A stretch of 64,000 bases of DNA from a virus (IMGVR_UViG_3300023109_000014:1-64000), one strand, 5' to 3'; shown: positions 445-46,300, numbered from the stretch's first letter. Made by a program: numbers and translations. The notes: generated from the sequence alone by a model not told the origin.

Positions 445-632
445 TACTAACACAACCTAATCAAATCGCACAATTCAGAGCAAAAACCTTACTAAGAGGC
501 TTAAAGTTAGAAACTTTAGGAATGACCAAAAGAGGGCAGTCTTGCTATAGCATTATTAAGTCAGAATATGGTCTTAAAGGTAGCAAACAAAAAGTTTACG
601 ATCAATTCAAGAAAATCCTTGACATGGGTTAA
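441..632 (+). CDS. hypothetical phage protein
   Basis: 63 aa ORF with ATGA overlap to previous gene, GGAGG-like SD. Confidence 0.65.
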   Translation: MILTQPNQIAQFRAKTLLRGLKLETLGMTKRGQSCYSIIKSEYGLKGSKQKVYDQFKKILDMG

Positions 633-654
633 AACAAGAACTAGAATGACTACT

Positions 655-1869
655 ATGCAAAAACTTGATAAACTATACAAAATTGACTCCCTCGGTAAAT
701 TAAGAGAGTGGACAATGGTAATCGATGGAAACGCTTTCTACGCTGAGAAAGGTTTAGTCGGAGGTAAAATTCGATGCGATAAACCAACAACTACAACTAG
801 CAAGAACGAAGGCAAGAAAAATGCCACAACTGATATCGAACAAGCATTGGTTGAAGCAAAAGCTAGGTGGATAAAGAAACTTAAAGAGGGTTATGCCAAA
901 ACCCCCAAAGAAGCAGAGACAACTGCATTTTATGAACCCATGCTTGCACAAAAGTTTGAAGATAGGCAAAAAGAAATCAACAAATCTTTTTCAGATAACA
1001 TTGCCGTATGGAGTCAACCAAAACTAGATGGTATTCGTTGCATCATTCGTTCAGAAAATTGGGAAGTTGTTGCTCGAACACGCAAAGGTACAAGAATTGA
1101 TATGATTCCCCATGTATGCAAAGCATTGATGGAATTCTTCAACGAGTACCCCAATGCTATTTTGGATGGAGAGTTGTACAATCACGATTTGAAGCACGAC
1201 TTCAACAAGATTGTATCTCTTGTGCGTAAGCAAGCCCCCAAAAGAGGAAAAAATGACTCAGAAAAAGCGTGGGAAAAAAAGCTTAGAGCATATGCAGATA
1301 GACTTGACGAGGCAGAGAAATTGGTTCAGTATTGGATATATGATATTCCACGATTTAGCGAAGATTGGCACAATGAGTCAACCCCATTTGCTTCAAGAAT
1401 GTTTAACTTTCAAAGTTGCTATATGAGTATGGACGATTCAACACAAGATTACATAAAGTTAGTACATCCTACTTCTTGCAAGAATCACGATGACTTAGAT
1501 TTGTTTTACGGAAGTTATACAGATGAAGGGTACGAAGGGCAAATGGTAAGACTGAATTGTCCTTACGAAAGCAAAAGAAGTAAAAGTTTGCTCAAACGCA
1601 AAGAATTTCAAGATGCAGAATATAAAGTTATGGACATTGAAGAAGGTAATGGAAACAGAGGGGGAACTGCAAAACATTTGGTGTGTTATTGCCCCGAAGT
1701 AGATAAAACTTTTCACTCTAACATAAAAGGGTCATTTGATTATCTTGCAGAGATTTTGCAAAACAAAGATAATTACATTGGCAAACTCGCAACAATCAAA
1801 TTCTTTGAACTAACTCCTGATGGAGTGCCAAGATTCCCATATGCCATTGCATTTAGGGATTACGAATAA
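655..1869 (+). CDS. lig: ATP-dependent DNA ligase (N-terminal WGR-like extension)
   Basis: PMLA, motif I QPKLDGIRC, LDGELY, EGQMVR, LLKRK, C-terminal GVPRFP; start moved from 568 to ATG 655 because TTGACA(619)-17-TAGAAT lies just upstream. Confidence 0.93.
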   Translation: MQKLDKLYKIDSLGKLREWTMVIDGNAFYAEKGLVGGKIRCDKPTTTTSKNEGKKNATTDIEQALVEAKARWIKKLKEGYAKTPKEAETTAFYEPMLAQKFEDRQKEINKSFSDNIAVWSQPKLDGIRCIIRSENWEVVARTRKGTRIDMIPHVCKALMEFFNEYPNAILDGELYNHDLKHDFNKIVSLVRKQAPKRGKNDSEKAWEKKLRAYADRLDEAEKLVQYWIYDIPRFSEDWHNESTPFASRMFNFQSCYMSMDDSTQDYIKLVHPTSCKNHDDLDLFYGSYTDEGYEGQMVRLNCPYESKRSKSLLKRKEFQDAEYKVMDIEEGNGNRGGTAKHLVCYCPEVDKTFHSNIKGSFDYLAEILQNKDNYIGKLATIKFFELTPDGVPRFPYAIAFRDYE

Positions 1870-1890
1870 AAACAACCAACCCATGCTAAA

Positions 1891-2478
1891 ATGATTGATC
1901 CAAAAAAAGTAACTAATTATAAAAGAACTAAATCCGAACTGCAAGAATTCCTTTTGTTCTGTATTTGTGTCGCGGGCAAAAAAAGTACTATTGAAGCACC
2001 TAAGCTTGATAGATTTTTGAATTCACTTAAAAAAAGGTTTAAGTTAGAGGAACCTTTTGCTTTGATTGAATCCGCGAAAGAAGACGGAAGTCTTTGGGAT
2101 GAAATGCAAGAACATAGAATTGCTCCGTATGGACAAAGGTACAATAGTTTTGTGGATGTTATTTCAAAGCTTGATGCGTACAATCTAGAAGAATCTACTC
2201 TTGATCAATTACAATCGATTAGAGGTATTAGTACAAAGACTAGTAGGTTCTTTCTTACTCATTCTGTTGAGAAGTTTGATGATCCCGTTCTAGATACGCA
2301 TATCCTTAAATTTCTAACTGATTTCGGTTACAAAGATGTGCCAAAGTCAACCCCTCAAAACCCAAAGGTGTACGAAAGATTTTCTAAACTATTTCGTAGT
2401 ATCGCTAGATTTGAGGGAAAAAGTGTTGCAGATTTTGACTTAGAGATATGGACAAAATATTCCTACGGAAACGCTTGA
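1891..2478 (+). CDS. HhH-GPD family DNA glycosylase/AP lyase (OGG/EndoIII-like)
   Basis: HhH LQSIRGISTKTSRFFL followed by VLDTHI (catalytic Lys and Asp positions); ends DLEIW. Confidence 0.75.
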   Translation: MIDPKKVTNYKRTKSELQEFLLFCICVAGKKSTIEAPKLDRFLNSLKKRFKLEEPFALIESAKEDGSLWDEMQEHRIAPYGQRYNSFVDVISKLDAYNLEESTLDQLQSIRGISTKTSRFFLTHSVEKFDDPVLDTHILKFLTDFGYKDVPKSTPQNPKVYERFSKLFRSIARFEGKSVADFDLEIWTKYSYGNA

Positions 2479-2510
2479 CAAATTAAGATAACTTATATAA
2501 CATTATTATT

Positions 2511-3305
2511 ATGAAAATTGCTAAACAATCCGTCCTTGGTTTTATGGAAGATGTCTACCCTTTAGGGATAGATACGAGTTATTTTACAAATTGGCTCGAT
2601 TCTATTGATGAAGATAGAATGAAAACATATCAAAGTTATTGGGAGTCTCTTCGACCCAAAACAGAAGCTGACTTTATTAGAGTGTGGTTATTCGCCTTTA
2701 TGAGTATACATACCACATGGGAGAGTAATGTTAGAGGTTACGAAGCATTGAAAGACTTAAAGTGGATGAACGATAAAAAACTCTTACGAGAAAAGCTTGT
2801 AGAATGTAGAGCAGGTTTGTACAACATGAGAACAGATAGGTTGTGGAAATTTCGCAATCAATGGCTAAAGGATTCTAGCCAATTTTACAAAAAAACCAAT
2901 GAAGCTTGGCAAGATTACAGAGATCGTTTGACTGATAATGTGTATGGCATTGGTCTTGCGAAAACATCATTCGTAATTGAGATGGCATATCCAAATGCAG
3001 ATATCTGTTGTCTAGATGTTCATATCTTGCGTTACCTTGGTAGAGAACAAGAAAATGGATCTCTCAACAAGAAGACTTACCGAATCCGAGAAAATTATTG
3101 GATTGACGAATGCAGAAAAAGAAACTATGATCCAGCGATGGTAAGGCATTATTATTGGGATGATATGAAGGGATATAATGATACTCGTTATTGGTCATAT
3201 GTTCTAGAAGGTCAAAAACGATTCGACTTATCTTTATTTACTCAAAAACTTAAACATAAAATTACATCATGGACACCAAAGAAGACAGAATTACAAGCAG
3301 TTTAG
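2511..3305 (+). CDS. second HhH-GPD family DNA glycosylase-like protein
   Basis: HhH VYGIGLAKTSF followed by CLDVHILRYL. Confidence 0.7.
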   Translation: MKIAKQSVLGFMEDVYPLGIDTSYFTNWLDSIDEDRMKTYQSYWESLRPKTEADFIRVWLFAFMSIHTTWESNVRGYEALKDLKWMNDKKLLREKLVECRAGLYNMRTDRLWKFRNQWLKDSSQFYKKTNEAWQDYRDRLTDNVYGIGLAKTSFVIEMAYPNADICCLDVHILRYLGREQENGSLNKKTYRIRENYWIDECRKRNYDPAMVRHYYWDDMKGYNDTRYWSYVLEGQKRFDLSLFTQKLKHKITSWTPKKTELQAV

Positions 3306-15803: not shown

Positions 15804-15887
15804 TTTCTTAGCAAGTTCAACTATAATTACACGAGAATATTTTTTTTTGATTGACTTTTATTGAGAAAAACAGTAATATTACTACCA

Positions 15888-16715
15888 ATGAATATGTTTC
15901 AAGAAGAACAATCGAAAGAAGATAAAATAAAGTTAGAAGCAAAAGCTAAATATGGAGTTCATTTCAATTTTTTCGAACAAGCTGGCAAAGAGTTGAATTG
16001 GTTGGAGGAAAATAATCCAACATTCGCAAAAAAAAATAAAGTTTGTATCATTGGTAATGGTTTATCTTTGTTAAGCAAAAAAGCTGGAGAGGCTATAGAT
16101 AAGTTTGACTACGTTTGTAGGGTTGATGATTTTGTAACTCCTGTTGAAAAAACAAAGTTTATCTTAGGTAGTAAGACTACTCATGTTGTGCACGGCGCAA
16201 GCCCTCTAGCTTCTGCGTGGTCAAAAGGCAGGGTTCTTCCTCGCGTAAGCAACATCTTGTTAATTCCTGCGGATCAATTCACCAGTATGCAGGCATGGCT
16301 TTATTATTTCTGCGGTAAGAATGGTTCGCTATTTGATTCTACCCCATTAATAAAATTACTTCTTTTAGAAAGATTAGGTATAGAGAATATAGAACAACAA
16401 GATATATGGAAAAATATAAATAGCCATGATCTATATGATACAAATCAAAACTGGAATTTTGTGTCATTAGCTTTGTGTAGAGAAATCGCGAATAAAACAG
16501 TTGAATACCCATCGGTGGGTATTTCAACAATATTCTATTTTAGATATATTTTAAATTGGGACGTATCTGTTATTGGTTTTGATTTTGAAGACAAGCATAT
16601 TTGCGAAGAGCTGACCAAAGACATTAAGGCGCCCATGCATGAAAAAATCGACTACACAGAAGAATCTGTAGTATTTGACGAATGGGTAGGTAACAAAATC
16701 ATTAAACTTCTTTGA
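15888..16715 (+). CDS. glycosyltransferase family 29 (sialyltransferase-like)
   Basis: L-like motif VCIIGNG.SL...G.AIDKFD.V.R...GSKTT; S-like PSVG...IGFDF. Confidence 0.7.
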   Translation: MNMFQEEQSKEDKIKLEAKAKYGVHFNFFEQAGKELNWLEENNPTFAKKNKVCIIGNGLSLLSKKAGEAIDKFDYVCRVDDFVTPVEKTKFILGSKTTHVVHGASPLASAWSKGRVLPRVSNILLIPADQFTSMQAWLYYFCGKNGSLFDSTPLIKLLLLERLGIENIEQQDIWKNINSHDLYDTNQNWNFVSLALCREIANKTVEYPSVGISTIFYFRYILNWDVSVIGFDFEDKHICEELTKDIKAPMHEKIDYTEESVVFDEWVGNKIIKLL

Positions 16716-20723: not shown

Positions 20724-21685
20724 TTAATGAAGATAAAATGTATGTATGTAAAGTTTGCGGCGAATCCTTTAATACTGAACGTAGCCTACACGCGCATTTA
20801 AAAAAACATAATTTGACTGTTGCGGAATATTATACCACGCATTTTCCTAAAAAAGATTTATTGACAGGAGACCCTTTACCTTTTAAGAATAAAAAAGATT
20901 ACTTTAATAGAGATTTTTTATCTAGAAACAGATTGATAAAATGGTTAAGCATGCAGTCTAGGGAGGATGCTGAGGTAAGAAAATATATAATTAATAAACT
21001 TGAAAAAAGAATCAAGTCTAAAAATCTACCTCATGCTCCTTGCCATATAGAATTGCAATTATGTCAATTACCGCCTATAGAATATTACAAAAAGATATTT
21101 GGGAGTTATAGCGAAGCCTGCAAGGAATTGCAGGGCAGCAATATGGAACCTATCTATTCCCAGAATATTGTATCTGATTTTTTTGAATCCAATAAGCGTT
21201 ATGACGATGTTGAAGTATTGATAGACACTCGAGAGCAACAACCGTTACAGTTTAACAAATCAAGAATTTTAAAATTAGACTTTGGCGATTATACTACTGG
21301 TGGAGATCAATACTCTTACACTTACGTGGACAGAAAAAGCGAGGCAGACTTTAAGTCAACTCTTTCAGTTGGTTTCGAAAGATTTAAGAAAGAAATTTGC
21401 AGGGCTGTTGAGTTTGACAGTTTTTTATATATTGTTGTTGATTCTAGCATTAATCAAATAGAAAAGAATAATGGTTTCTCCGCTCATAAAGCTAACCTTG
21501 CTTTCATATGGCATAACATGCGATTTTTAATAAATGAATATCCTAAAAATTGCCAATTTATATTTTCTAGCAGTCGAGCAGCTTCTGAATTTTTAATTCC
21601 TAGATTACTAATTGAGGGAAAAAACTTATGGGGTTGCGACATGCAGTTTCATATAGACAAAAGAATAAGAGAAAAGAAACAATGA
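20720..21685 (+). CDS. C2H2 zinc finger + ERCC4 (XPF/Mus81-type) nuclease
   Basis: CKVC...HLKKH; IDTREQ, GDY, VDRKS..DF, ERF..E. Confidence 0.8.
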   Translation: MINEDKMYVCKVCGESFNTERSLHAHLKKHNLTVAEYYTTHFPKKDLLTGDPLPFKNKKDYFNRDFLSRNRLIKWLSMQSREDAEVRKYIINKLEKRIKSKNLPHAPCHIELQLCQLPPIEYYKKIFGSYSEACKELQGSNMEPIYSQNIVSDFFESNKRYDDVEVLIDTREQQPLQFNKSRILKLDFGDYTTGGDQYSYTYVDRKSEADFKSTLSVGFERFKKEICRAVEFDSFLYIVVDSSINQIEKNNGFSAHKANLAFIWHNMRFLINEYPKNCQFIFSSSRAASEFLIPRLLIEGKNLWGCDMQFHIDKRIREKKQ

Positions 21686-23547
21686 CCTGGGATACTGGAA
21701 AACAACTTCAAAGAGAATCGTTTAAAGATATTAACGATATCATACTAAATAAAAAAGGTTTTTTAGAAGAAAGGGAGGCGAAGTTACTTTTGTATAAATT
21801 CTTAAGAAACAATATTACTTTTGCTGCCGATTTACTTGCAGGAGTAAAACTTTTTCCTTTTCAGCATATGGGTGTTAAGTCAATGTTTCAGACTGATTAT
21901 TTCTTAGGCGTATGGAGTCGAGGAATGTCAAAATCATGGACTACTGGCGTTTTTGCGTTTCTCGACGCAATATTAAATCAAGGTGTTCAAATTGGTATTA
22001 TCTCTAAGTCCTTTAGGCAATCTAAGATGATATTTAAAAAAATTGAAGATATTGCCAACAAACCAGAAGCAGCTTTGCTTGCGCAATGTATCACTAAAAC
22101 TTCAAAGACTAATGATCAATGGACTATGCATATCGGGGAAAGTCAGATTCATGCTTTGCCATTGGGTGATGGAGAAAAATTGAGAGGTTTTCGATTTCAC
22201 AGAATTATTATCGACGAATTTCTTTTGATGCCAGAAAGAATTTATAACGAAGTTATTATTCCTTTTTTGAGTGTTGTTGAGAATCCCACTCAAAGGGATG
22301 ATCTTTACTCGCTTGAGACCGAACTTATTAATAGGGGAGAAATGGAAGAAAAGGATAGGTATGTTTGGCCAAACAATAAGTTGATTATGCTTTCTTCTGC
22401 AAGTTATAAATTTGAATATATGTATAAAGTGTATTCACAATTTGATGAATTGATAAAGACTGGAAATAAGAAGCCTTCTGAAGCAAATAGGGTTGTTATG
22501 CATTTTAGCTATGACTGCGCCCCTACTCAATTATATGATCAAAATTTAATAGATCAGGCAAGAAGCTCAATGAGTCAATCTCAGTTTGATAGAGAATTTG
22601 GAGCCGTCTTTACTGATGATAGCTCAGGTTATTTCAAGACCTCTAAAATGGCAGAGTGTACGCTTCCTGAAGGCGCTTCTCCTAGCGTTGAGGTCGCTGG
22701 AGAGGTTGGTCAGAAGTATATCCTCTCTTTCGATCCCAGTTGGGCCGAAAGTGAAAGTAGTGATAATTTCGCCATGCAGGTGTTTAAATTAAGTGATGCA
22801 AAAAAACTAGGTACACTTGTTCACAGTTATGCGCTTGCTGGTGCGCCCATGCGGTCACATATATTGTATATGCATTACATTCTAACTCATTTTAATATTG
22901 TGGGAATGGTTGGAGATTACAATGGTGGCGTACAGTTTTTAAGCGCCGCCAATGAAAGTTCGATATTTAAAAAAGATGGAATTAATATAAAAATGATTGA
23001 CGCAGACTTTGATAATATTGAAGAATACAATAAGGCTTTATTGGATGCTAAGTCGCAATACGATTTAAAGAGCAAGAGAATATGTATTTTAAGAAAACCT
23101 ACAAGTGCATGGATTCGAAGAGCTAACGAACTACTTCAGTCAAACTTTGATCATAAGAGGATATTTTTTGCCTCTCCTGCTATTGATGATTTTTACGAAG
23201 AGCAAAGAAAAAAAAGGATTCCAATTAATAAATTAAAATTTTCAAACGTTATCGATAAAGACAATAGTTCTGAGGCGTCGAAAATGATCGACTTTGTTGA
23301 GCATCAGGAATCTATGATTTATGCCACAAAGGGAGAATGTTCACTAATTCAAATTACTACTTCTCCACAAGGAACACAAACTTTTGACTTGCCTCCGTCT
23401 CTTAAAAGACAAACTGGCCCAGAGAAGGCTAGAAAAGACAGTTACTCCGCCTTAATCTTGGGCAACTGGATGATTAAGACATATTATGATTTTTCAAATT
23501 CTAAAGATAATACTATTTATACATTTACCCCAATGTTTATTCGTTAA
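21682..23547 (+). CDS. terL: terminase large subunit
   Basis: LFPFQ, Walker A SRGMSKS, LRGFR, Walker B IIIDE, LSSA, REFGA.F, nuclease SFDP...D...KDSYSAL. Confidence 0.9.
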   Translation: MTWDTGKQLQRESFKDINDIILNKKGFLEEREAKLLLYKFLRNNITFAADLLAGVKLFPFQHMGVKSMFQTDYFLGVWSRGMSKSWTTGVFAFLDAILNQGVQIGIISKSFRQSKMIFKKIEDIANKPEAALLAQCITKTSKTNDQWTMHIGESQIHALPLGDGEKLRGFRFHRIIIDEFLLMPERIYNEVIIPFLSVVENPTQRDDLYSLETELINRGEMEEKDRYVWPNNKLIMLSSASYKFEYMYKVYSQFDELIKTGNKKPSEANRVVMHFSYDCAPTQLYDQNLIDQARSSMSQSQFDREFGAVFTDDSSGYFKTSKMAECTLPEGASPSVEVAGEVGQKYILSFDPSWAESESSDNFAMQVFKLSDAKKLGTLVHSYALAGAPMRSHILYMHYILTHFNIVGMVGDYNGGVQFLSAANESSIFKKDGINIKMIDADFDNIEEYNKALLDAKSQYDLKSKRICILRKPTSAWIRRANELLQSNFDHKRIFFASPAIDDFYEEQRKKRIPINKLKFSNVIDKDNSSEASKMIDFVEHQESMIYATKGECSLIQITTSPQGTQTFDLPPSLKRQTGPEKARKDSYSALILGNWMIKTYYDFSNSKDNTIYTFTPMFIR

Positions 23548-33679: not shown

Positions 33680-34531
33680 ATGAGAGGGCATAAACACGAT
33701 ACTCAAAATTTATATATCAATCGAGAAAGAATACGAGGGGTTCAATCATGTGCAGTAGGATGGTCCGCCGAAGAAACATATGTTAATGCCATCGGAAGAG
33801 ATGCGGGTTTTTTAGGAGGTGTAGTTGAACAACCCTTAACATCTACGTGTGATATCGAAAGATTCATGGTTTCTCCAACAGATCCTATTATTGATTTATT
33901 TAATAGCGTGGAAATTTATGGAGAAACAAAATATACAAATGGACAAAATTATATTTTTTCAAGAGCTCAAATAACAAATTATTCATGCGAATGCGCTGTT
34001 GGATCTATACCTACGCTAAATTTCTCCTTGTTGTGTTATGGAAATTCTGGAGGAGATACAGATATATTTCTTAATCAATCCCCAGAACGTGATCCTACCA
34101 TTATGATCGCTAGCCCAGGAAGCGTGTCTTTAAATGTTAAAGGTCATTCCTCTAATAGAATTCAATCTTTTAATTTTCAAATTAATGTTGACAGAGATCC
34201 AATTTTTAAATTAGGCTCACTAGAGCCTTTAGATTTTCGGGTAGAATTTCCGATACAAGTGGATTGTCAGTTTGTTCTACATGTAGATGATTATGAATCT
34301 AAAAATTTATTTGATTTTATTTGTTCCCCCGAGATTCAAGATTTAACACTTGGTTTTAAAGATTGTGAGTCAGGAGAAAATATTAGAAGTTTTTTCATGA
34401 AAGATGCTAAATTAATGGATTACAATCAGTCTGGTTCGATTCATGAATTTTTAGAGGCCACATTCTCTTATAAGTCATACATTACAAACATTCAAGACTT
34501 AAGAAAAATATTAAATGGTCTTTCTTATTGA
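33680..34531 (+). CDS. tail tube-like minor tail protein
   Basis: shares SYS...VG.I.T and IQSF...R..I..LGS segments with the tube protein. Confidence 0.55.
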   Translation: MRGHKHDTQNLYINRERIRGVQSCAVGWSAEETYVNAIGRDAGFLGGVVEQPLTSTCDIERFMVSPTDPIIDLFNSVEIYGETKYTNGQNYIFSRAQITNYSCECAVGSIPTLNFSLLCYGNSGGDTDIFLNQSPERDPTIMIASPGSVSLNVKGHSSNRIQSFNFQINVDRDPIFKLGSLEPLDFRVEFPIQVDCQFVLHVDDYESKNLFDFICSPEIQDLTLGFKDCESGENIRSFFMKDAKLMDYNQSGSIHEFLEATFSYKSYITNIQDLRKILNGLSY

Positions 34532-37377: not shown

Positions 37378-40300
37378 ATGGCGCAAGAAAATATTAGAGT
37401 AAGAGTTAAGGCGATTGGGTTAGATCAAGACATCGCCAACCAAGCAAAAATAGGCGAAAAGAAAATAAAACCTATTAAGCTTTCTTTGAATGAAAAAGGG
37501 CTTGTGCAACCTCTCGGTAGAATTACTGGGCAAATGGGAGAATTCGAGAAATCGATGGATGCTGCGGTTGCTCGTGTATTCGCTTTTGGAGCTGCTGTTT
37601 CTGTTATAAATGGAGTATCTAGCGCATTAAAAGCTATGGCGCAATCTGCAATGGAAGTTCAAAAAGCTTTGAAGGATATCAATGTTATTATGAATATGTC
37701 AGAATCTGCTTTGCAAAATTTTGGCGGAGCTTTATTTGATGTTGCTAGAGATACTGCTTCATCATTTGATGATATTTCTGCAGCAGCAACTGAATTTGCC
37801 AGACAAGGCTTAAGCGCTGACGAAACACTGCAGAGAATTGCTGACGCTATGACCTTAACGAGATTGTCTGGCATGGACTCTGTAGAAGCTGTAAATGCTT
37901 TAACCGCTGCAATTAATGGTTTTAATGACGCAGCAATCAATTCCTCTGATATTGTGAATAGGCTAGCTAATGTTGATGCCGCATTCGCTGTATCTTCAAA
38001 AGATTTAGCTGATGGATTGGCGCGAGCAGGGGCAACTGCCCAAGCTGCAAAAGTAGAATTTAACGAGCTGCTTGCTGCAGTTACAAGCGTTCAACAGCAA
38101 ACCGCTAGAGGTGGCGCAGTGATTGGAAACTCTTTTAAAAGTATATTTACTAGGCTTCAGAGATCGAGCGTAAAAGAAGCTATGGAGGCTATAGGTGTCG
38201 CGACCCAGGATGCTTCTGGTTCATTTAGGTCTGGAATGGCAATCTTGCAAGATTATGCTAGAGGTTATGATAATTTATCTGACTCGCAAAAAGCTGCCAC
38301 TGACGAATTAGTTGCTGGGGTTTTTCAGGTTAATAATTTAAAAGCTTTGATTAAAGATTTAAATAGTGAGTTTAGTATATACGATCAAGCTTTAAAAACT
38401 GCAAACAGTAGTACAAACGAAGCCACTCAAAGAAATCAAGAATTGAACAAGACTATGTCGGCTTTGATGACTCAAACTGGTCTATCTATTAAAGAGCTTG
38501 CTGCAGGCCTTGGAGAAATGACCCTTGGGCCTGGGATCGAGAAAGTTCTCGAAACAGTAAAATCTTTATCTGACGGTTTAAATAACTTAATAGGTGAAGA
38601 TACTGGCTCAAGCATAGGTAAAACTCTTTTAAAAGGCATTGGTAGTTTTATTAGTGGTCCTGGGATGGTTTTAATTGGGGGTGCGTTTATTAAATTATTT
38701 GCGTTTGTCGCACAACAAGGTTCGAGTGCACTAAAATCAATCTTTTCCATCAATAGCGAAACTAAAAGACAAGAAGGTTTGCAGGCAGCAATTCTGCAAA
38801 TATTAATGAATGAAGAAAGTATTCGACAGAAAATCCTGGGTGGCGCCGCAAGTCAAGCGGCGAAAGAGCAAACGATTTTAAGCGTTTTAAAAAAGCAAAC
38901 CATGGAAAGGCAGGCGCAAGATGCGCTTTTAAAAAAAATCGCTGCGTCGTCTACATTAGCAAATGTCGCAATAAGTAATCAAGGAACCATTGTTCCGCAT
39001 GGTAGGGGTTCTAGAGCTGCCGCAGGCAGAAAAGATCTTGGAATGTCTAAGGGTTATGTTCCTCCAGCCACTAAAGATTCTAAATTTATTCCATCTTTCG
39101 AGGCTGAACAAAAAGATATAGAGAGAAGGGTTGGAGGCGCAACTAAATCAGCTTCTCCAGTTTTAATAAAAGGTTTTCAAAAAACTAAAACGCAAAAACA
39201 AGATGTCGTCGCTAATACGGACGAGGTTGTTGTTGAAAATTATATGGGTTCGGGCGCTTCCGCCATTTTAAACAAAAACATGGCTCAAAGGTTTAGTTTT
39301 GATAATGGGGTAGAGAAATATTACTCTGCTGCAGAATATGGTTCAAAAAATTTCTATTCGTCTGGCTATGTTCCTAATTTCAAAGCAACAAATAAGCAGG
39401 TAATTAAATTAAATGCAGCTGGACAAGGAATTATAACTGCAGAAGCTGGAAAGTCAGAAGTTGGTAAAAATCATACAGTTACTGCTTCTTCAGTTTTTGA
39501 TGGCCCAGTTCCTCCAGCATTTAAAGGTTCAAAATTTGAAGCAAGAAATTTTACAGTTGGAAGATTAGAACAATCTAAAGGAGGCTTTCATAGTATTGTA
39601 GATAAGCATATGACTACTGCATTAAGAGACGTTGCCCAAGATGTTGTTCCAGGTGGAAAGGTTAAAGGTTCTGGACCCCTGAGTGATTATTTAGATAAAT
39701 CTGCAGGACCTCAATTTACTGGAAGAATTTTTGAGGCAACCTTAAATTATATTAAAAATTCAGTAGTTAAAAATGATCCTGGAACAGCTGGCTGGGATTT
39801 TCCTGGAGGACAGTTTCAAAAAAATCTAACTACTGCATTTAATCTTGATTCAAGAAAAGGAAAAAATGTCGATGCAAAAGTGTCATCCAGCAAAAAAAAC
39901 ATAGGAAGCGGCATTAAGAAAATTATTGACTCTAGGGGTGGTTATAAAAATTTAAAGCAGTACAAAGATTTTGAAAAACAAAATAAAACTAAAAAAGCTT
40001 CTGCAGTTGGAAAACCAAGAGCTTCAAAAGGAATGATTCCATCAAATACCGCAAGTGTTCCGAATTTTGTATCCACTTGGGGTAAACCAGAATTGCTTAA
40101 AAAGATTAGAGAAAAGAATTTATCAAGAGCTCAAAAAGATATTAAAGGTTTTGACGGCATGAAGGCAACTAATGAATGGAGCGGTCAATTACCTATTATA
40201 CAAGTCGCCGATAAAAAAACTGGAACAACAACTAGATTTACTTATGGTAAGGGAGAGTATGATAACGAAAATAAGACTGACATTTTATATTCAGAAAGAG

Positions 40301-43300
40301 CTAAAGGGGTAGACGTAAACGATCCTTCTATGAAAGGTGGAGCTAATAGAAATTTTGATAAAATCGCAGAGTTTACAGGAAAAAGAAGTTGGAAAAATAA
40401 AGAGATTCATAGCACCTTTGACCAAATTCGAGCTTCTTCAGGCAAGACTCCTTGGGAAACCATAATCAATTCATTCCCGCAATTAAAACAAAGAGTTAAG
40501 CCAGGAATGTCAACCTCGGGAACTTTTCAAATTGGTACTGATGAAATCGAATATAGAAATATTAAATCTTTAAAAACTAAAGTTAATAAATGGGTTAAAG
40601 AAAATGGTATAGAGTCATTTAATAATTGGTCAGAAGCAAATTTAGGCTTTAATACAAAAAACTCAATTTTAAGCGGAACTGCATCTGGCGAATATTTTGC
40701 TATGGATGCATATACAAAAATATTAAAAAAAGGAGACAAGCATTTTAATCGAGATGAAAAAGCTGGCTTTTATTCTCAGGGAACTGTCCCTAATTTTATT
40801 ATTGATAAGAATACTGAAAGATCTATATTGCTTAAACAATGGCAGGGAAAACTTGATCAAGCCAGAACTCTCGCTAAATCAGGAAAACCCAGAGCTCAAA
40901 CAGACCCTCAAATTAGCCAACTGAATGGCGAAGCAAATGGAATATGGAGCCAGATTGTTAAAATGCAATCCCCTCAAAAGCCAAAAACCAAAAACGAAAA
41001 AAGCCACTCTGAAGGTTTGATCCCTAACTTCTCTAGTTATTTAGATGCTGGCAGCAATGTTGATAAAAGTTTTGGAGGAGGGATTGTTCCTAATTTTGTC
41101 AAGGTTGGCGAAACAAATCTAGAGAGAGACCGCCTTTTAAAGCAATGGCAAGGCAAACTTGCACAAGCAAAAACCTTATCTCAATCGGGTAAACCCAGAG
41201 CTCAAATAGATCCTCAAATTAGCCAGCTTAACGCAGAGGCAAATGGGGTATGGAGCCAAATCCAAAGTTTAAAAACTTCAAAAAAAGAAAAAACAGGAAA
41301 ATTAGGAAAAGGTTCTACGCTTAGAAGATCTGAGGGTCTTGTTCCCGCTTTGGCAAAAGGTGGAATACCAAACTTTAGCGAAGATAAGATGCGTGAAGAA
41401 ACGTTAAGTAGGACAATATCGAAAATGTCTGAAGGTTTAGTTCCCAACTTTGCTCTCAAAAGAAATGCTGGACTAAGAAAGTTTTACGATTTTGACGAAA
41501 CTTTAGGAACGTATTCTAAAAACGTTAAATCTAAGGATTTATTTCAAGCGGAGTCAGCAGGGCTTGCGAAACCAACCCCTCTCGCAAAAGAACTTGAGGG
41601 GCAAGCCGTAACTATTTTAACCGCAAGAGCAAAGCAGTCAACTCCATTTATTGAAGAAAAATTAAAGAAGTGGGGTATTAATCCTGAAAAGATTATGACT
41701 ACTGCGGATATGTTTAATAATCTTAAAATTGCTAATGACGGGTCTGGAAAAATTATTAAGGCTCAAGGAGGAAGAATCTCTGGTTATAGAAATTTAAAAC
41801 CTGCCGAGAAAAAAGCTATTCTTCTTGAAAGAATATGGAAAAAACAAGGAGGTCAATACGATTTAATTGATGATGCGATTGAAAACATCGAAGCAATTAA
41901 AAACTTAAGGAATGAAAATATAACTGGCACTCATTATCAATTTAGTGGTCAGCATTCTGGAAGAGGTAGTGGGAATGCCGAAGGTTTAGTTCCCAACTTT
42001 GTTCAATCAGAAAATACTCAAAAAGATCTTGTCCCCAATTTTGCTGCAAAAAGCATGCCTGTTCCTGGTTATTTAGAAAAAGTTTCCAGAGAAATTCAGT
42101 CTGCAGGGGGTAGTGCTCAAATTGTTGGTGGGGCTCCTAGAGATTTTTTAATGGGAAAATTTCCTAAAGATTGGGATGTAGAGGTTTTTGGTTTAGAACA
42201 AGAAAAGTTGCAAAAAATATTGTCTCCATCTTTAACTAAAGAAGGTTTAGTTGGTAAAGATTTTGGAGTATTCAAAGCTAAAAGTGGAGGTCAAGATTTT
42301 GAGTTCTCGATGCCAAGAAGAGAAAAGAAAGTGGGTGTTGGGCATAGAGGTTTTGAGGTTGAAGTAGATCCTAACATGGGGCGTAAAGAAGCTGCACAAA
42401 GAAGAGATTTAACAATCAATTCTATTTCTTACGACCCCCTTACAAAGAAATTTATTGACCCCTTGGGGGGGAGGAAGGATTTACAAGACGGCATCATGAA
42501 GCCTACGTCTCCCAGATTTAAAGAAGACCCTTTGAGAGTGTTAAGATCTATGCAGATGGCTGGAAGGTTTAATCTTTCTGCAGATAAAGAATTGGTCAAC
42601 TATTCTCGAGAAATGACTGGACAATTTAAAGACCTTCCGAAAGAAAGAGTGAGAGAAGAATGGATGAAATGGGCATCTAAATCTACCAATCCAGAAAAAG
42701 GTTTACAATTTTTAAAAGAGTCTGGGTGGATAAAACATTTTCCTGAAATTGATCAATTGCAGGGAGTTCCCCAGTCTCCCAAGCATCACCCTGAAGGAGA
42801 TGTGTTTAATCACACAAAGCTTGTGACGAATGCAATGGCGAATAATAAAAACTGGCAAATGCTTCCAGAGAAAGAGAGGGGTAAATTAATGTTTTCTGCT
42901 TTGACTCATGATTTTGGAAAAGTTACAAATACACAAATAAGTAAAGATGGCGCTATAACTTCTTATGGGCACGAGAAAGCTGGAGTAGCACCAATGAAAA
43001 GTTTCTTGGGTAGGATTATGTCTCAAGGAGAAGCGAGTAAATTATCTAAAGACTTAACGCCTTTTGTTGAAAGACATATGTTTCACTCAAATTTTCCTCA
43101 GAATTTGACGCAGAAATCTATTAATAGGTTGACTAAGGACGTAGGGGACCTAAGCAAGTTTCAAATATTGCTTGAATCTGACATGGGTAAAAATTTATCG
43201 GATGATGTAACTGCCAGAAAATTTACTCAGGTTGACGAAAAAAATATTAATAAGATGAGTTCAATCGCAAAAGAAAGTGGAATATATAAAGAGCCGCCTA

Positions 43301-46300
43301 AGCCGATTGTACAAGGTAGGGATTTGATGCAAGAAAAATTAATAGAACCTGGCCCTCAAATGGGTTCTGTATTAAAACATCTAGAAGAAGCTCAAATAAG
43401 TGGAGAGTTTAAAACTAAAAAAGGGGGAATTGAATATTTTAAAAATAACAAAGAAGATATATTAAAACGTATTAATAAATTTACCCCAAAAGGTAGAATG
43501 TTGAGAGGGAGAGCTAGCGGAGAAGTTCCAGAAAAAATAAATTATTCTCAAGGCTTGGTGCCTAATTTTGCTAGAATACCTTCTATGTTTAACGTTAAGC
43601 AAACTAAAACTGGCAAGGATTACGTAATGCAAAAAGATTTGGAACTTGCTAAGACGCAGTTTCCTGACGCAACTTTTAAACAATGGGGCAAGAATCCAAA
43701 GATGCATTTCATTTCTGGACATAAACCTCAAAATAAAATAACGAAGGACAAGGTATCCTTCGCGTCTAACGTAGACTTGCAGGAGTTCGGTAGCTTTGCC
43801 GCCCAAAAAGGATATCCAGAAGTAATGGGAGCGATTGTTAAGTCAACTCAAGTTAAACAGAATTCTTCAGGTAATAGAAATTATGATCGATTGACATCTT
43901 GGAAAAACAAAAAAGAAGAAGTTCCTAATCAAATAAATATTAAAGATGCCCAATCTCTCTCTACTGAAGACTACAAATCTTTTCCAATGGGTAAAGCTGG
44001 AGCAGATTTAAAAAGATTATATAATCCTGACAGTTTTGATAATGTATCTAATACAATTTTTACTTCTTCAGCACCTCAAAAAGCTCTTGCAAAATCCGCA
44101 GAGAAATTCACTACAAATAAGATAGAAAATTCTGAGGATATATTAAATTTTGTTAAGAAATCTCGTGGGTCAGAATCAATTTCAACCGAACAAATAAATA
44201 AATTATATCAAGAGTTTGCTGAAATGAAAGGTCTTGCAGTTATGTCTGATGGACATGTGCCTAATTTTGCTTCTCCTGCTTTTAATAAATTCATAAAAGA
44301 TAATATACATAATAAAAATTATAAAAATATTTCTGATAAAGTAACTAAATTGAATCTATCTGTTGGCAATGCGTATGGAGTTGGTGGTGATATTCCTCAA
44401 GATGTTAAAATTTTAAATCGTTTAACTTCTCAATTATCTAAAGTAACAAACCCGCTCATGGGTCCAACAGGCAAAGGTTCAAGGGATAGAGTATACGAAT
44501 CAAAAGAATTTGCGCAGAAATTTAACAAAACTGAGTATGACAAAATCTCAAAAGAAATTACAACATTGCAAAAAGAAAAGTTTCAATTAAGTCGCCCATC
44601 AAATCCAGACAAAAATCCAGACAGAGTTAAAAAAATTGAGTCTCAAATTTTAAAGAAAAAAGAGCAGGCAACTAATACGCAATTTTATAAAGCTAAATCT
44701 GAAGCGGTGAAGAAAGAAGATCAAGGAATAGAAAGGTTGTTTCAAGAAAAATTTACCGTCCAAAAAGATCAAATTGTTTCGCCTACAGGTAAAACTGTAT
44801 CAACTAAAGATTTAAATTCTATTGAAGAAGAGTTTAATGAATATATGTTTGCCAAGCAACAAAAAAGAACTAATACAAACGAAGAATTAGTCTTGCCCAA
44901 TTTTTCTGTTACTGCCCCAGAAACAGTCCCAAACTTTGTCAACGTAAAAGCAATGAGAGAGCTTGCAAAAAGAGGTGCAACTGAAGGAGAGAGAGCTGCC
45001 GCTCAAAACATGTTAGCAAAGCATGGGTTTAAGAGTAAAACAATCACATCTAGAAGTTGGCACGATAAAATATTTTTAGAAAATTATATTAAAAATAACG
45101 GTCCTAAGTCTGACCTTGAGATGTTAATTAAGAAAGGTTATGCTGAGAAAGAATTAGTTTCCCTAAAAAAACAATATCAAAATGACCCTCAATCTGTTAA
45201 AATTGCAAATCACGGTATTGTTCCAAGCTTCTCAAAACAAAAAGACCGAATAAGTGAAGCGGATTACGAAACCCAATTGTATAAAGAAAACTTTAAAGAC
45301 TCATCTCAAAAACAAAACGTCAACAATTTTAGCTTTGTCGATGACAGAACAACCTCTTCTTCAGGCTCTCAAAGTTTTGCAGAGGGTATGGTTTCTAAAG
45401 ACGTAAGCTCTAGCAGTTCTTCTGTAGACTCCAAAAGTTTTGCAAGTGGAACTGTTTCCAATATTTCTTCGCAAGAAACTGAAACTTTAGCAACTGGGTT
45501 TATTCCAAACTTTGGTATTCAATCTGACCGAATCAAGGAAGCGAGTCAAGCCTCTCAACTTTACGGACAAAATGTTGGGTATAAAGATACTCAAGTTAAA
45601 AAATTAGAAATTAACGGAAAGAAAGAGAGAGTTGTAGTAAACAATAAAGAAAAATTTTACTCTACTGGTTCAGAAGTTCAAAAAGCTTTTAGCCTCCCTT
45701 TTAAACCTAATGGAGGAATGGTTTTGCCTCCAAAAAATACTAAAGTCGGAAAAGAAAGAAGTAGAGAGTTTAGTAGTTTGGTTAATTCTTTTTCTAGCGG
45801 CGTAACTCCTACTGCCGATTCTTCTCCTCCTACTTTGGCTTATGGAGCTATGCCAAATTTCGCGGTATTCAGAAAATATTCTCCAAACACCTTAAGGAAA
45901 TCCAAGATTAAGGATTATTCTAACGAAGAGTTTTCTTCGATAAGTAGAGCTTTATCGGAATTTAACCTTATGTCTATGGGGTCTAGAGGAGGTTTGATGG
46001 GTCAAAAATTAAAGTCTGAGTCTCGAGCAGAAGGTTTATTTAAGACTAAGACGCAAGAGCAAAAAGATGATTTTAGACAATTTTTTAATTCAAGAGAGTT
46101 TAGAAGCTTAACAAAGAATGTTCAGGAAAAACTTAAAGTTGATTTTCCCGATTTATCCAGGGGTTACGGTTATAACGTTGACCCTTTTGCTGTGAGGCAA
46201 CTCGAGAATGTAAGCGCTGGAACAGTTCCAAATTATGCAAATTTAAGTTTATATAGAGGGCAAAAAAAATCAACTATAGATAAACCCAGCGTTGGTAAAA

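Follow-up and report, generated by a model that had tools for sequence, protein, structure and literature searches.

A CCA-adding-type tRNA nucleotidyltransferase with an HD region embedded in the predicted giant tape measure protein of an uncultured marine phage

Why should an enzyme that resembles the tRNA CCA-adding enzymes lie inside a phage tail protein? The question is raised by a window of 64,000 nucleotides (the whole stretch of DNA that was analysed), taken from a metagenome-assembled, linear contig of 82,461 bp (CheckV completeness 60) of an uncultured marine phage. The window carries a giant open reading frame (ORF) of 10,437 aa, which continues beyond its end (Table 1). A PhageMin_Tail domain was detected near the N-terminus (99.4 bits, versus a Pfam cut-off of 33.2), and a large terminase and a minor-tail PHROG match were located upstream of the ORF, while no family match was found for its other neighbours. 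From its sequence, the giant ORF is predicted to be a tape measure protein that bears an array of cassettes, of which only the tape measure (TMP) domain and the CCA-adding/HD cassette (P0001) were identified with confidence. A preliminary description of the locus had placed a full-length CCA-adding-type enzyme with an HD domain within a tail protein. The embedding is borne out by the single ORF with its PhageMin_Tail domain, and the positions given there for the catalytic motifs were all confirmed by translation.

Table 1. Features of the giant ORF, its embedded cassette and its surroundings, in window coordinates
Feature	Coordinates	Strand	Details
Large terminase	21628-23547		upstream of giant ORF
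Minor-tail PHROG match	33680-34531		upstream of giant ORF
Giant ORF	37378-64000 in window, on to 68691	+	10,437 aa; ORF list and whole-contig translation
PhageMin_Tail (tape measure) domain	37741-38298	+	aa 122-307 of giant ORF; Pfam PF10145, E 3.2e-28
HAD-like cassette	41452-41988	+	just upstream of CCA-adding/HD cassette; DxDxT (YDFDETL), ILTAR and DD motifs
VPNF before cassette	42031-42042	+	directly adjoining; second copy at 41989-42000
CCA-adding/HD cassette (P0001)	42043-43557	+	505 aa, stop-free; aa 1556-2060 of giant ORF
Folded enzyme (head, neck, HD body, tail)	42067-43482	+	P0001 residues 9-480; AlphaFold2, Foldseek
Nucleotidyltransferase head	42121-42498	+	motif A, loop RREKKVGVGHRGF and motif B; Pfam PolyA_pol residues 27-152
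Motif A	from 42127 (GGAPRD); 42169-42177 (DxD)	+	DxD pair D43/D45
Motif B	42400-42408	+	RRD (R120, R121, D122)
Motif D	42523-42537	+	EDPLR; matches Salmonella Cca
HD phosphohydrolase region	42772-43227	+	HPEGD..H257, H289-D290, H310, H345, D380; HD pair 42907-42912
C-terminal tail domain	43300-43431	+	GRDL..PGP; Pfam tRNA_NucTran2_2 residues 420-463; C-terminus of PDB 3wfo_A aligns
Disordered linker, enzyme end to next motif	43483-43557	+	P0001 residues 481-505; pLDDT 55-42
VPNF after cassette	43558-43569	+	directly adjoining

At the level of its domains, the cassette combines a CCA-adding-type tRNA nucleotidyltransferase of class II with an HD phosphohydrolase, and the catalytic residues are intact; its activity and its specificity for CCA are presumed. 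Class II CCA-adding enzymes are recognized by an EDxxR motif (motif D), which serves as the nucleotide-selecting template, and by a flexible loop between motifs A and B. In the cassette, the segment from D45 to R120 comprises 75 residues, compared with 67 in Salmonella Cca and with a median of 75 (range 67-89) among 155 modules, and its core loop segment PRREKKVGVGHRGF (pattern R-x-E-x-K-x-G-x-G-x-x-G-F) aligns with Salmonella Cca without gaps. The DxD, the RRD and the motif D arginine (R165) were kept in all 155 aligned modules, and D162 in 154 of them. The Pfam family PolyA_pol (PF01743) matched P0001 with 72 bits (cut-off 23, E 7e-20) and was recovered at 75 bits in a six-frame search of the contig; PolyA_pol_RNAbd (22.7 bits, cut-off 22) and tRNA_NucTran2_2 (30.6 bits, cut-off 27) were also detected. 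The top NCBIfam family was NF008137, the multifunctional CCA addition/repair protein, with 178 bits, and the actinobacterial CCA model scored about 135 bits.

The reference Salmonella Cca (EHY68798.1) is 35% identical to the module, and motifs A, B, D and E as well as the HD residues are kept. Head, neck and HD body follow one another in the same order as in the enterobacterial multifunctional enzyme (NF008137), and the elements GGAxRD, DxD, RRDLTIN, EDPLRVLR and ERV..E are common to the module and Salmonella Cca. In contrast, the C-terminus of the module is longer, contains an insert and ends in a tRNA_NucTran2_2-type tail, and whereas the enterobacterial Cca is a free protein, the module is an internal part of a tail protein. 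Other full-length cellular relatives (33-42% identity in the best segment) are encoded as single genes in Verrucomicrobiota, Acidobacteriota, Zetaproteobacteria, Planctomycetota and others.

The HD portion proved less clear-cut than the preliminary description had stated. The HD part of Salmonella Cca can be aligned with this region, whose six numbered residues (Table 1) were invariant in 71 of 71 sequences and kept in 153-154 of the 155 modules. However, Pfam HD (PF01966) gave no match in P0001 at E<=0.01, and TIGR00277 (HDIG) reached 17.4 bits, below its cut-off of 27.6. The assignment thus draws on residue conservation, on the fold and on the PF01966 matches in relatives (P0003, P0004, P0009, P0016, P0023, P0034, P0036, P0043, P0059 and P0139).

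An AlphaFold2 model of P0001 was obtained with a mean pLDDT of 93.2 and a pTM of 0.90. Its top Foldseek matches were class II CCA-adding enzymes (46 matches at E<=0.001), including 9kma, 6qxn, 1miv, 3wfp and 5hc9, all at probability 1.00 and with TM-scores of 0.6-0.72 normalised by target length. The predicted fold is of the seahorse type, with head, neck, body and tail. In a comparison with the relative L004 (95% identity), no block of the giant protein is better conserved than the folded enzyme: 25 non-synonymous and 109 synonymous differences correspond to a dN/dS of 0.042, and identity is 95.6% in the enzyme versus 76% in the linker that follows it. These values bear on the proposal that the domain was exapted as a filler or ruler segment and that its catalysis is of no consequence. 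Tail length is set by the length of the tape measure, and inserted domains could merely add length, but strong purifying selection, a fold predicted with high confidence and two active sites with all catalytic residues in place make such a role highly improbable.

The question of specificity is bound up with another explanation. The scores were far below the NCBIfam equivalog cut-offs (NF008137, 178 versus 451 bits; TIGR02692, 134.6 versus 438.8 bits), and for this reason the sequence does not choose between CCA-, CC- and A-adding enzymes and poly(A) polymerases. The module might be an offensive or signal-quenching effector, rather than a repair enzyme: either RNA tailing (of the poly(A) or CCACCA type) would mark host RNAs for decay, or the HD domain would be the working part and would destroy nucleotides that signal in immunity, whether 2',3'-cyclic or of another kind. 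Poly(A) polymerases belong to the class II nucleotidyltransferases, and two PcnB models indeed matched P0001 (97.8 and 63.5 bits). ADP-ribosyltransferases and GNATs are neighbours of the module in related proteins, and the repertoire of polyvalent proteins has been described as consisting mostly of host-directed effectors and domains that degrade nucleotide signals (PMC5512222). Nevertheless, we regard an effector as quite unlikely. The CCA models scored far above PcnB and span the full length including the tail domain, while the higher of the PcnB matches is confined to head and neck; the loop between motifs A and B is not shortened; and the layout of the module is colinear with that of Cca genes present in single copy in cells of many phyla. 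Moreover, in one relative (P0005) the HD region has been lost while the transferase persists, such that the HD domain does not appear to be indispensable. By the same token, a pairing of end healing with subsequent nucleotide addition is not obligatory.

The arrangement itself recurs in relatives of the giant protein. A search restricted to proteins of 4,880-15,530 aa recovered P0002 (7,702 aa), with a TMP domain and a module of 60% identity, and P0005 (7,487 aa), which also carries the module; P0006 and P0007 are fragments of the same lineage that contain it as well. Together with P0001, the modules of these four relatives formed a single clade (support 100 and 99 in two trees). The phylogeny, which the preliminary description had proposed as a route to the donor lineage, gave no hint of a donor or a host. 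The recurrence also bears on the possibility that an assembly or frameshift artefact created the fusion from a tail gene and a separate cca gene, as might be suspected in a metagenome-assembled linear contig of incomplete length. Positions 41000-44999 are covered unbroken by a contig of 30,341 nt from another study, two additional runs yielded short contigs that span both junctions of the module with 0 differences each, the same in-frame embedding is found in L004, P0002, P0005 and P0007, and an open frame of 31 kb cannot be due to chance. The likelihood of an artefact is practically negligible.

The cassettes of the giant protein are fenced by G-x-[VI]-P-N-F motifs, which are its putative cleavage sites. 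In the giant ORF, 22 instances of the pattern [VILM]PNF were counted, versus 0.16 expected from shuffles, and the VPNF that follows the module holds the same place in P0002 (1306/1795) and P0007 (222/718). Cysteine is nearly absent from the entire protein: the 10,437 residues of the giant ORF include 2 cysteines, and P0002, P0005, P0006 and P0007 have 0, in contrast to 13.2 per 1000 residues across fourteen further ORFs from this phage. The embedded module likewise has 0, whereas its stand-alone homologues have a median of 6 (none in 5 of 96) and Salmonella Cca has 7. The loss of cysteine fits a protein that survives outside the cell and crosses an oxidising compartment.

Both observations enter into a further alternative, in which the giant ORF would be an expression polyprotein. 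Its cassettes would be freed late in the producing cell and act there, for example in keeping tRNAs charged during virion synthesis or in countering late-triggered abortive infection, and only the tape measure core would enter the tail. The enriched motifs lie in disordered linker, as cleavage sites would, and by our own estimate a protein of 1.15 MDa, present in three or six copies, would be hard to accommodate in the lumen of the tail tube, so that incorporation of the full protein would be difficult. On the other hand, the near-zero cysteine content of the whole protein and of the embedded enzyme, unlike that of the stand-alone homologues, would be unexpected for a cytoplasmic enzyme; the same family is fused in other phages to the head-internal MuF anchor, which argues for carriage in the virion; and no protease for release of the cassettes was identified by a scan for HExxH. 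This zincin-like metallopeptidase motif was absent from the giant ORF, P0002 and P0007 and was found in P0003 and P0005, as judged by motif scan only. We consider a polyprotein of this kind unlikely, if by no means negligible.

The cassette immediately upstream of the module has HAD-like motifs (Table 1). It had no Pfam match and no PDB sequence match, its model was of low confidence (pLDDT 54.9), and the weak fold matches were mostly to HAD phosphatases (e.g., Pnkp1 4xru_D, probability 0.94, E 0.18); a phosphatase was thus not confirmed by any of these approaches. A homologue precedes the CCA module in P0007, but not in P0002. No tRNA genes were found in the phage contig, and neither an RNA ligase nor a Pnkp was detected among 10 further ORFs scanned.

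Enzymes that are made in advance and carried in the virion are known from phage T4, in which Alt, an ADP-ribosyltransferase, is packed in the head by means of a capsid-targeting sequence; Alt and the internal proteins are packaged in the virion, processed by a protease and injected (summarised in PMC5512222). The concept of a pre-made virion enzyme acting at the start of infection would be shared by the present module. In contrast to Alt, however, its predicted substrates are RNA ends and its fusion partner is the tail ruler, and its processing and injection are presumed. Stand-alone tRNA nucleotidyltransferases of the same enzyme family, to which the preliminary description had rightly alluded, are present, for example, in jumbo phages and in phages of Vibrio, Escherichia and Sinorhizobium (463 matching phage records). 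These show at most 34% identity, with 68-90% of the query aligned, and in many of them the C-terminal part is incomplete. Unlike the embedded module, they are separate genes, whose products are made after infection; for the jumbo-phage enzymes, restoration of CCA ends as a form of RNA repair has been proposed (PMC7824862).

A further parallel, in architecture, is provided by the polyvalent proteins of phages and conjugative elements, described as a virion-delivered class by Iyer, Burroughs, Anand, de Souza and Aravind (2017, PMC5512222). The giant protein resembles them in its very large size and its position among virion genes, and its multiple domains may likewise represent effectors that act independently. 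Elsewhere, relatives from the same CCA/HD family occur in fusion with the hallmark domains of the class, Phage_Mu_F and ART-PolyVal, and with GNAT domains, and the same logic, by which ready-made activities are delivered with the DNA, would apply. The anchor differs, since it is a tape measure domain, rather than MuF, portal or ArdC. A zincin-like metallopeptidase for self-processing is described in that study as pervasive, although not universal; in the giant ORF, G-x-[VI]-P-N-F fences are present instead of an HExxH peptidase. The Pol-beta nucleotidyltransferases described there are minimal domains of firmicute conjugative elements, and neither 'CCA' nor 'tape measure' occurs in the main text of the article.

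Taken as a whole, the earlier interpretation is partly supported, and the observation on which it was built is confirmed. In our preferred reading, to which we assign a probability of about 0.5, a catalytically intact CCA-adding/HD enzyme is a cassette of a tape-measure-anchored polyvalent protein and is delivered for the repair of tRNA ends. Tape measure proteins exit from the virion before the DNA or along with it. The giant protein would be assembled into the tail and would leave in the same manner, and its cassettes would be released, or activated, at the junctions marked by G-x-[VI]-P-N-F. Thereafter, the enzyme would rebuild the 3'-CCA ends of host tRNAs, and the HD domain may strip 2',3'-cyclic or 3'-phosphates left by a nuclease. 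Indirect support for such virion-borne repair in advance of phage translation comes from the arrangement in the four relatives, the recurrent association with MuF and ART-PolyVal, the purifying selection, the loss of cysteine and the published existence of a defence that cleaves tRNA tails. The latter, Cas12a3, is described as an RNA-triggered phage defence that cuts the 3' CCA tails of tRNAs. It is reported to cut 2-4 nt from the tRNA end, whereby the discriminator base, which CCA addition would not replace, can be lost.

These results suggest that the virus carries into the cell a ready-made enzyme that mends tRNA ends cut by host defences. If so, the enzyme would be on hand before any phage gene is expressed, and translation would be kept running while the host trims its tRNA tails upon infection.

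The 505-residue module embedded in the giant tail protein (P0001) is a complete tRNA nucleotidyltransferase of class II that also contains an HD domain, and its two active sites are intact. Three Pfam models scored above their cut-offs, namely PolyA_pol over the head (72 bits), PolyA_pol_RNAbd and tRNA_NucTran2_2, while the Pfam HD model, which was matched in relatives, was unmatched in this sequence. The top NCBIfam model was NF008137, a multifunctional CCA addition/repair protein (178 bits, residues 27-372), followed by an actinobacterial CCA enzyme (135 bits, residues 11-452) and then by other CCA models; none of the NCBIfam models reached its equivalog cut-off. The PcnB poly(A) polymerase models scored 98 and 64 bits, over the head and neck only. 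Salmonella Cca is 35% identical in alignment, and the module has kept its GGAxRD, DxD pair, R-x-E-x-K-x-G-x-G-x-x-G-F loop, RRDLTIN, EDPLRVLR and ERV..E elements, together with the HD-domain residues HPE.D..HT, HD.GK and GH..AG. When the module was aligned with 70 stand-alone homologues, D43, D45, R120-R121-D122 and R165 were among the invariant columns, as were H257, H289-D290, H310, H345 and D380 in the HD region. DxD, RRD and R165 were found in all of the 155 modules compared, and the HD pair in 154.

The AlphaFold2 model of the module had a mean pLDDT of 93.2 and a pTM of 0.90, with residues 9-480 folded and residues 481-505 disordered. A Foldseek search of this model against the PDB returned 46 matches with E<=0.001, the first of which were class II CCA-adding enzymes (9kma, 6qxn, 1miv, 3wfp and 5hc9, probability 1.00). 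A sequence search of the PDB gave 3wfo_A as the best match to the C-terminal two thirds and 6ibp_A, a CCA-adding enzyme, as a match to the head. A scan of species-representative genomes matched 600 stretches, of which 598 were relatives. The 80 best of them were 33-42% identical over the best segment, nearly all of them over almost the full length, and included 37 sequences from Verrucomicrobiota, 8 from Acidobacteriota and 7 from Pseudomonadota, in addition to other phyla. These relatives look like ordinary cellular cca genes, which lends support to the functional assignment. The module most likely adds CCA, rather than CC, A or poly(A), to the extent that specificity can be read from sequence.

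The virus record is a single linear contig of 82,461 bp (CheckV completeness 60), whose initial 64 kb form the window. The module lies within a single open frame, which occupies 38% of the contig and carries a tape measure domain near its N-terminus. Apart from the terminase and minor-tail genes, the neighbours of this giant ORF gave no family matches in Pfam or PHROGs, and the phage is therefore very divergent. No other RNA-repair genes were detected among 10 further ORFs scanned, and there were no tRNA genes on the contig. The cyclophilin encoded near the end of the contig is unusual in a phage; it could be relevant to the folding or refolding of the giant protein, whose junction motif has an invariant proline.

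Features of the contig and of the giant ORF (window positions; L006:16292-17128 corresponds to contig 80292-81128)
Feature	Position	Strand	Remarks
ATP-dependent DNA ligase and two neighbouring Ogg-HhH-type DNA glycosylase-like genes	568-3302		early region
Family-29 glycosyltransferase (sialyltransferase-like)	15861-16712		ORF match, E 2e-8
Large terminase	21628-23547		upstream of giant ORF
Minor-tail protein	33680-34531		weak PHROG match
Giant ORF	37378 (ATG) to 68691		10,437 aa
PhageMin_Tail domain	giant ORF residues 122-307		Pfam E 3e-28, 99.4 bits versus cut-off 33.2
HAD-like cassette	41452-41988		DxDxT, ILTAR, DD; just upstream of module
CCA-adding/HD module (P0001)	42043-43557		giant ORF residues 1556-2060
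Two cysteines	L006:3249-3254		giant ORF residues 9958-9959
Cyclophilin-type peptidyl-prolyl isomerase	80292-81128 (L006:16292-17128)	-	Pfam Pro_isomerase E 4e-33
Collagen triple-helix repeat protein	L006:17157-18461	-	end of contig; Pfam Collagen E 3e-41

Misassembly was considered as a source of the fusion. The stretch was contained in 20 listed runs from 13 studies, all of them seawater or marine metagenomes except for one coded as organism; in the RNA run X20, a fraction of 0.09 of its words was present. Contigs of four of the runs were aligned to positions 41000-45000. The upstream junction was bridged with no differences by one short contig each from runs X3 (record 10) and X2 (record 3), and the downstream junction, again with no differences, by short contigs from X4 (record 22) and X3 (record 12). 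In run X7, from a different study, one contig of 30,341 nt covered the whole stretch, with 230 letters differing. The same frame is open over at least 5,387 residues in L004, a related IMG/VR contig (module protein identity 95%). An assembly artefact is excluded, since contigs from other runs bridge the junctions and L004 has the same open frame. The X7 relative, which is 94% identical, has a compensating 1-nt insertion and 1-nt deletion at 44071/44076, by which the giant frame is left intact.

A search restricted to proteins of 4,880-15,530 residues reduced 1,067 candidates to four. Two of these, P0002 (7,702 residues, 60% identical) and P0005 (7,487 residues), contain both PolyA_pol and PhageMin_Tail domains. 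The others, P0003 and P0004 (5,723 and 5,722 residues), have no tape measure domain and carry PolyA_pol, HD and PF25176; with one HExxH, a single cysteine and no PNF motif, they seem to represent a second type of carrier for the CCA/HD module. Their module is located at about residues 3180-3640, and the source name of P0003 is Tara. In P0005 the module (residues 4847-5201) occupies a position much further downstream and has kept every transferase residue, while its HD region is gone (37 residues versus about 150-160). A second hydrophobic glycine-rich segment, resembling that of the tape measure core near residues 424-446, was observed in mid-protein in P0005 (residues 3236-3254) and in the related fragment P0007 (residues 2178-2209); at the threshold applied it was not detected in the giant ORF or in P0002.

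An exhaustive search of 1.84 billion representatives returned 31,751 proteins with E<=0.001. The best 150 of these were combined with the window module, Salmonella Cca, the phage gene L001, P0003 and P0005 in a tree of 155 rows, of which 96 were shorter than 560 residues, 34 measured 560-999 residues and 19 were of 1,000 residues or more. Five rows, including that of the window module, represent the motif-bearing lineage. The five embedded modules form a single clade, with support of 100 in this tree and 99 in a second, 106-row tree containing 80 cellular genes, and this clade is nested among stand-alone enzymes. The preliminary description had looked to phylogeny for the donor lineage and, through it, for a hint of the host. 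This expectation was disappointed: the embedded clade falls beside metagenomic stand-alone proteins with weak support (67 and 88), and since no named phylum is sister to it in either tree, no host is indicated.

Proteins of at least 1,000 residues have at least six separate origins on the 155-row tree. A Pfam scan of nine long family members identified ART-PolyVal in P0016, P0023 and P0139, the last of which also contains Phage_Mu_F; GNAT, Arr-ms and DUF192 in P0034; DUF5662 in P0043; and Peptidase_C39_2 in P0059. A search among proteins of 885-2,525 residues gave 50 with E<=1e-20, for which the precomputed Pfam annotation lists PF04233 (MuF) in three and PF18760 (ART-PolyVal) in two, as well as PF13563, PF03496, PF10263, PF18810 and PF18823. 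In view of these MuF and ART-PolyVal fusions, virion-linked polyvalent proteins have recruited the CCA/HD family more than once, and the tape measure lineage is one of these recruitments.

The giant ORF contains 22 copies of the motif [VILM]PNF, all within residues 665-5114, whereas 500 shuffled sequences averaged 0.16 copies and never had more than 3. The consensus of 51 copies from five proteins is [AL]-[AS]-x-G-[FLY]-[VI]-P-N-F-[AVS]. Five of the 58 examined proteins of at least 560 residues bear G-x-[VILMF]-P-N-F (the giant ORF, P0002, P0005 and the fragments P0007 and P0006, of 3,779 and 1,368 residues), and it is absent from the other 53. The motif stands on both sides of the module in the giant ORF (1552/2061), P0002 (1306/1795) and P0007 (222/718); the P0005 module, whose position in the protein differs, is not bounded by it on both sides. 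According to the AlphaFold2 model, a disordered linker precedes the copy downstream of the enzyme. The motif may serve for cleavage or for chaperone docking, or it may be a recombination joint. As regards a protease that would act on it, a motif scan found no HExxH in the giant ORF, and no neighbouring structural gene is named by Pfam or PHROGs.

The HAD-like cassette was also considered as an RNA 3'-phosphatase and was not accepted as such: it had no Pfam or PDB sequence match, and its model, built from three sequences, had a pLDDT of 54.9. Foldseek returned nothing at E<=0.001, the weak rows being mostly HAD phosphatases, including Pnkp1 and T4 Pnkp, so that this activity is a lead only. The cassette is also present just upstream of the module in L004 (94% identical) and P0007 (42%), and is missing from that position in P0002.

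No block of the giant protein is better conserved relative to L004 than the folded enzyme (95.6% identity), whose dN/dS is 0.042 (25 non-synonymous and 109 synonymous differences). The corresponding identities are 93.9% for the HAD-like cassette, 89.5% for the tape measure core, 79-88% for the other cassettes, 76% for the linker after the enzyme and 57% for residues 3400-5300. Over positions 42043-43482 the dS of the CCA module is 0.52, well under the 0.98-1.85 of the flanking cassettes; recent exchange of the cassette between phage lineages and constraint at the nucleotide level are both possible causes.

The giant ORF contains two cysteines, which are adjacent, in 10,437 residues, and P0002, P0005, P0006 and P0007 contain none, whereas 14 other ORFs of the same phage have 13.2 per 1000 residues. 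Cysteine is likewise lacking from the embedded modules themselves, versus a median of 6 in stand-alone homologues (none in 5 of 96) and 7 in Salmonella Cca. The MuF-type relatives P0139 and P0059 are less depleted, with 2.7 and 8.1 per 1000, respectively. The five embedded modules, being a single clade, represent one event of cysteine loss and not five. Such a loss, by an enzyme entering a cysteine-free carrier, would nevertheless fit a protein that is stored in an extracellular particle and passes through an oxidising compartment, and the cysteine purge of an embedded enzyme could serve as a simple sequence signature for flagging other phage-tail cargo.

We propose that the cassette would be an active CCA-adding/HD enzyme carried on the tape measure protein, that it would be released in the host when infection starts, and that the released enzyme would rebuild tRNA 3' ends there. 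To this chain as a whole we assign even odds (about 0.5). [quoted passage not shown] Cleavage of tRNA 3' tails is a recently established defence against phages: PMC12851939 (see also PMC13594972) describes Cas12a3 nucleases, one of them from a Bacteroidetes bacterium, whose cut in the tRNA 3' tail falls 2-4 nt from its end and blocks phage spread; by that account, viral tRNAs cannot circumvent tail cutting and the means of viral resistance are unknown. By our estimate, the bulk of the giant protein would be a hard fit in the tail lumen, and a discriminator base, once lost, cannot be restored by a CCA/HD enzyme.

In a more far-reaching and distinctly speculative version, which we think doubtful, one lineage of marine siphophages would employ its tape measure protein as a cysteine-free, motif-punctuated conveyor that injects ready-made enzymes by way of the tail, among them a CCA/HD repair enzyme neutralising tRNA 3'-tail-cutting immunity (Cas12a3-type or toxin RNases) before phage expression. 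Delivery of this kind would differ from that of head-packaged MuF or Alt-type effectors, and the neutralisation, if it occurs, would answer the call of the Cas12a3 paper (PMC12851939) for a "yet unknown means of resistance".

The enzyme family, its phage-borne copies and polyvalent proteins are already known; the novelty lies in their combination, in which a tape measure serves as the anchor and an RNA-end repair enzyme as the cargo, with the cassettes fenced by P-N-F and cysteine purged. A literature search found no description of a CCA enzyme within a polyvalent or tape measure protein, or of enzyme cargo on a tape measure. The terms "CCA" and "tape measure" do not occur in the main text of PMC5512222, whose supplementary architectures could list such fusions, and in the paper on ICP1 and PLE the tape measure protein figures as the target of a defence and not as cargo. 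The idea of polyvalent, DNA-accompanying effectors would be extended to a new anchor, the tail tape measure, and to a new class of activity, RNA-end repair rather than attack. A CCA-adding/repair enzyme made beforehand and carried in the virion would be a viral escape route from tRNA 3'-tail cleavage.
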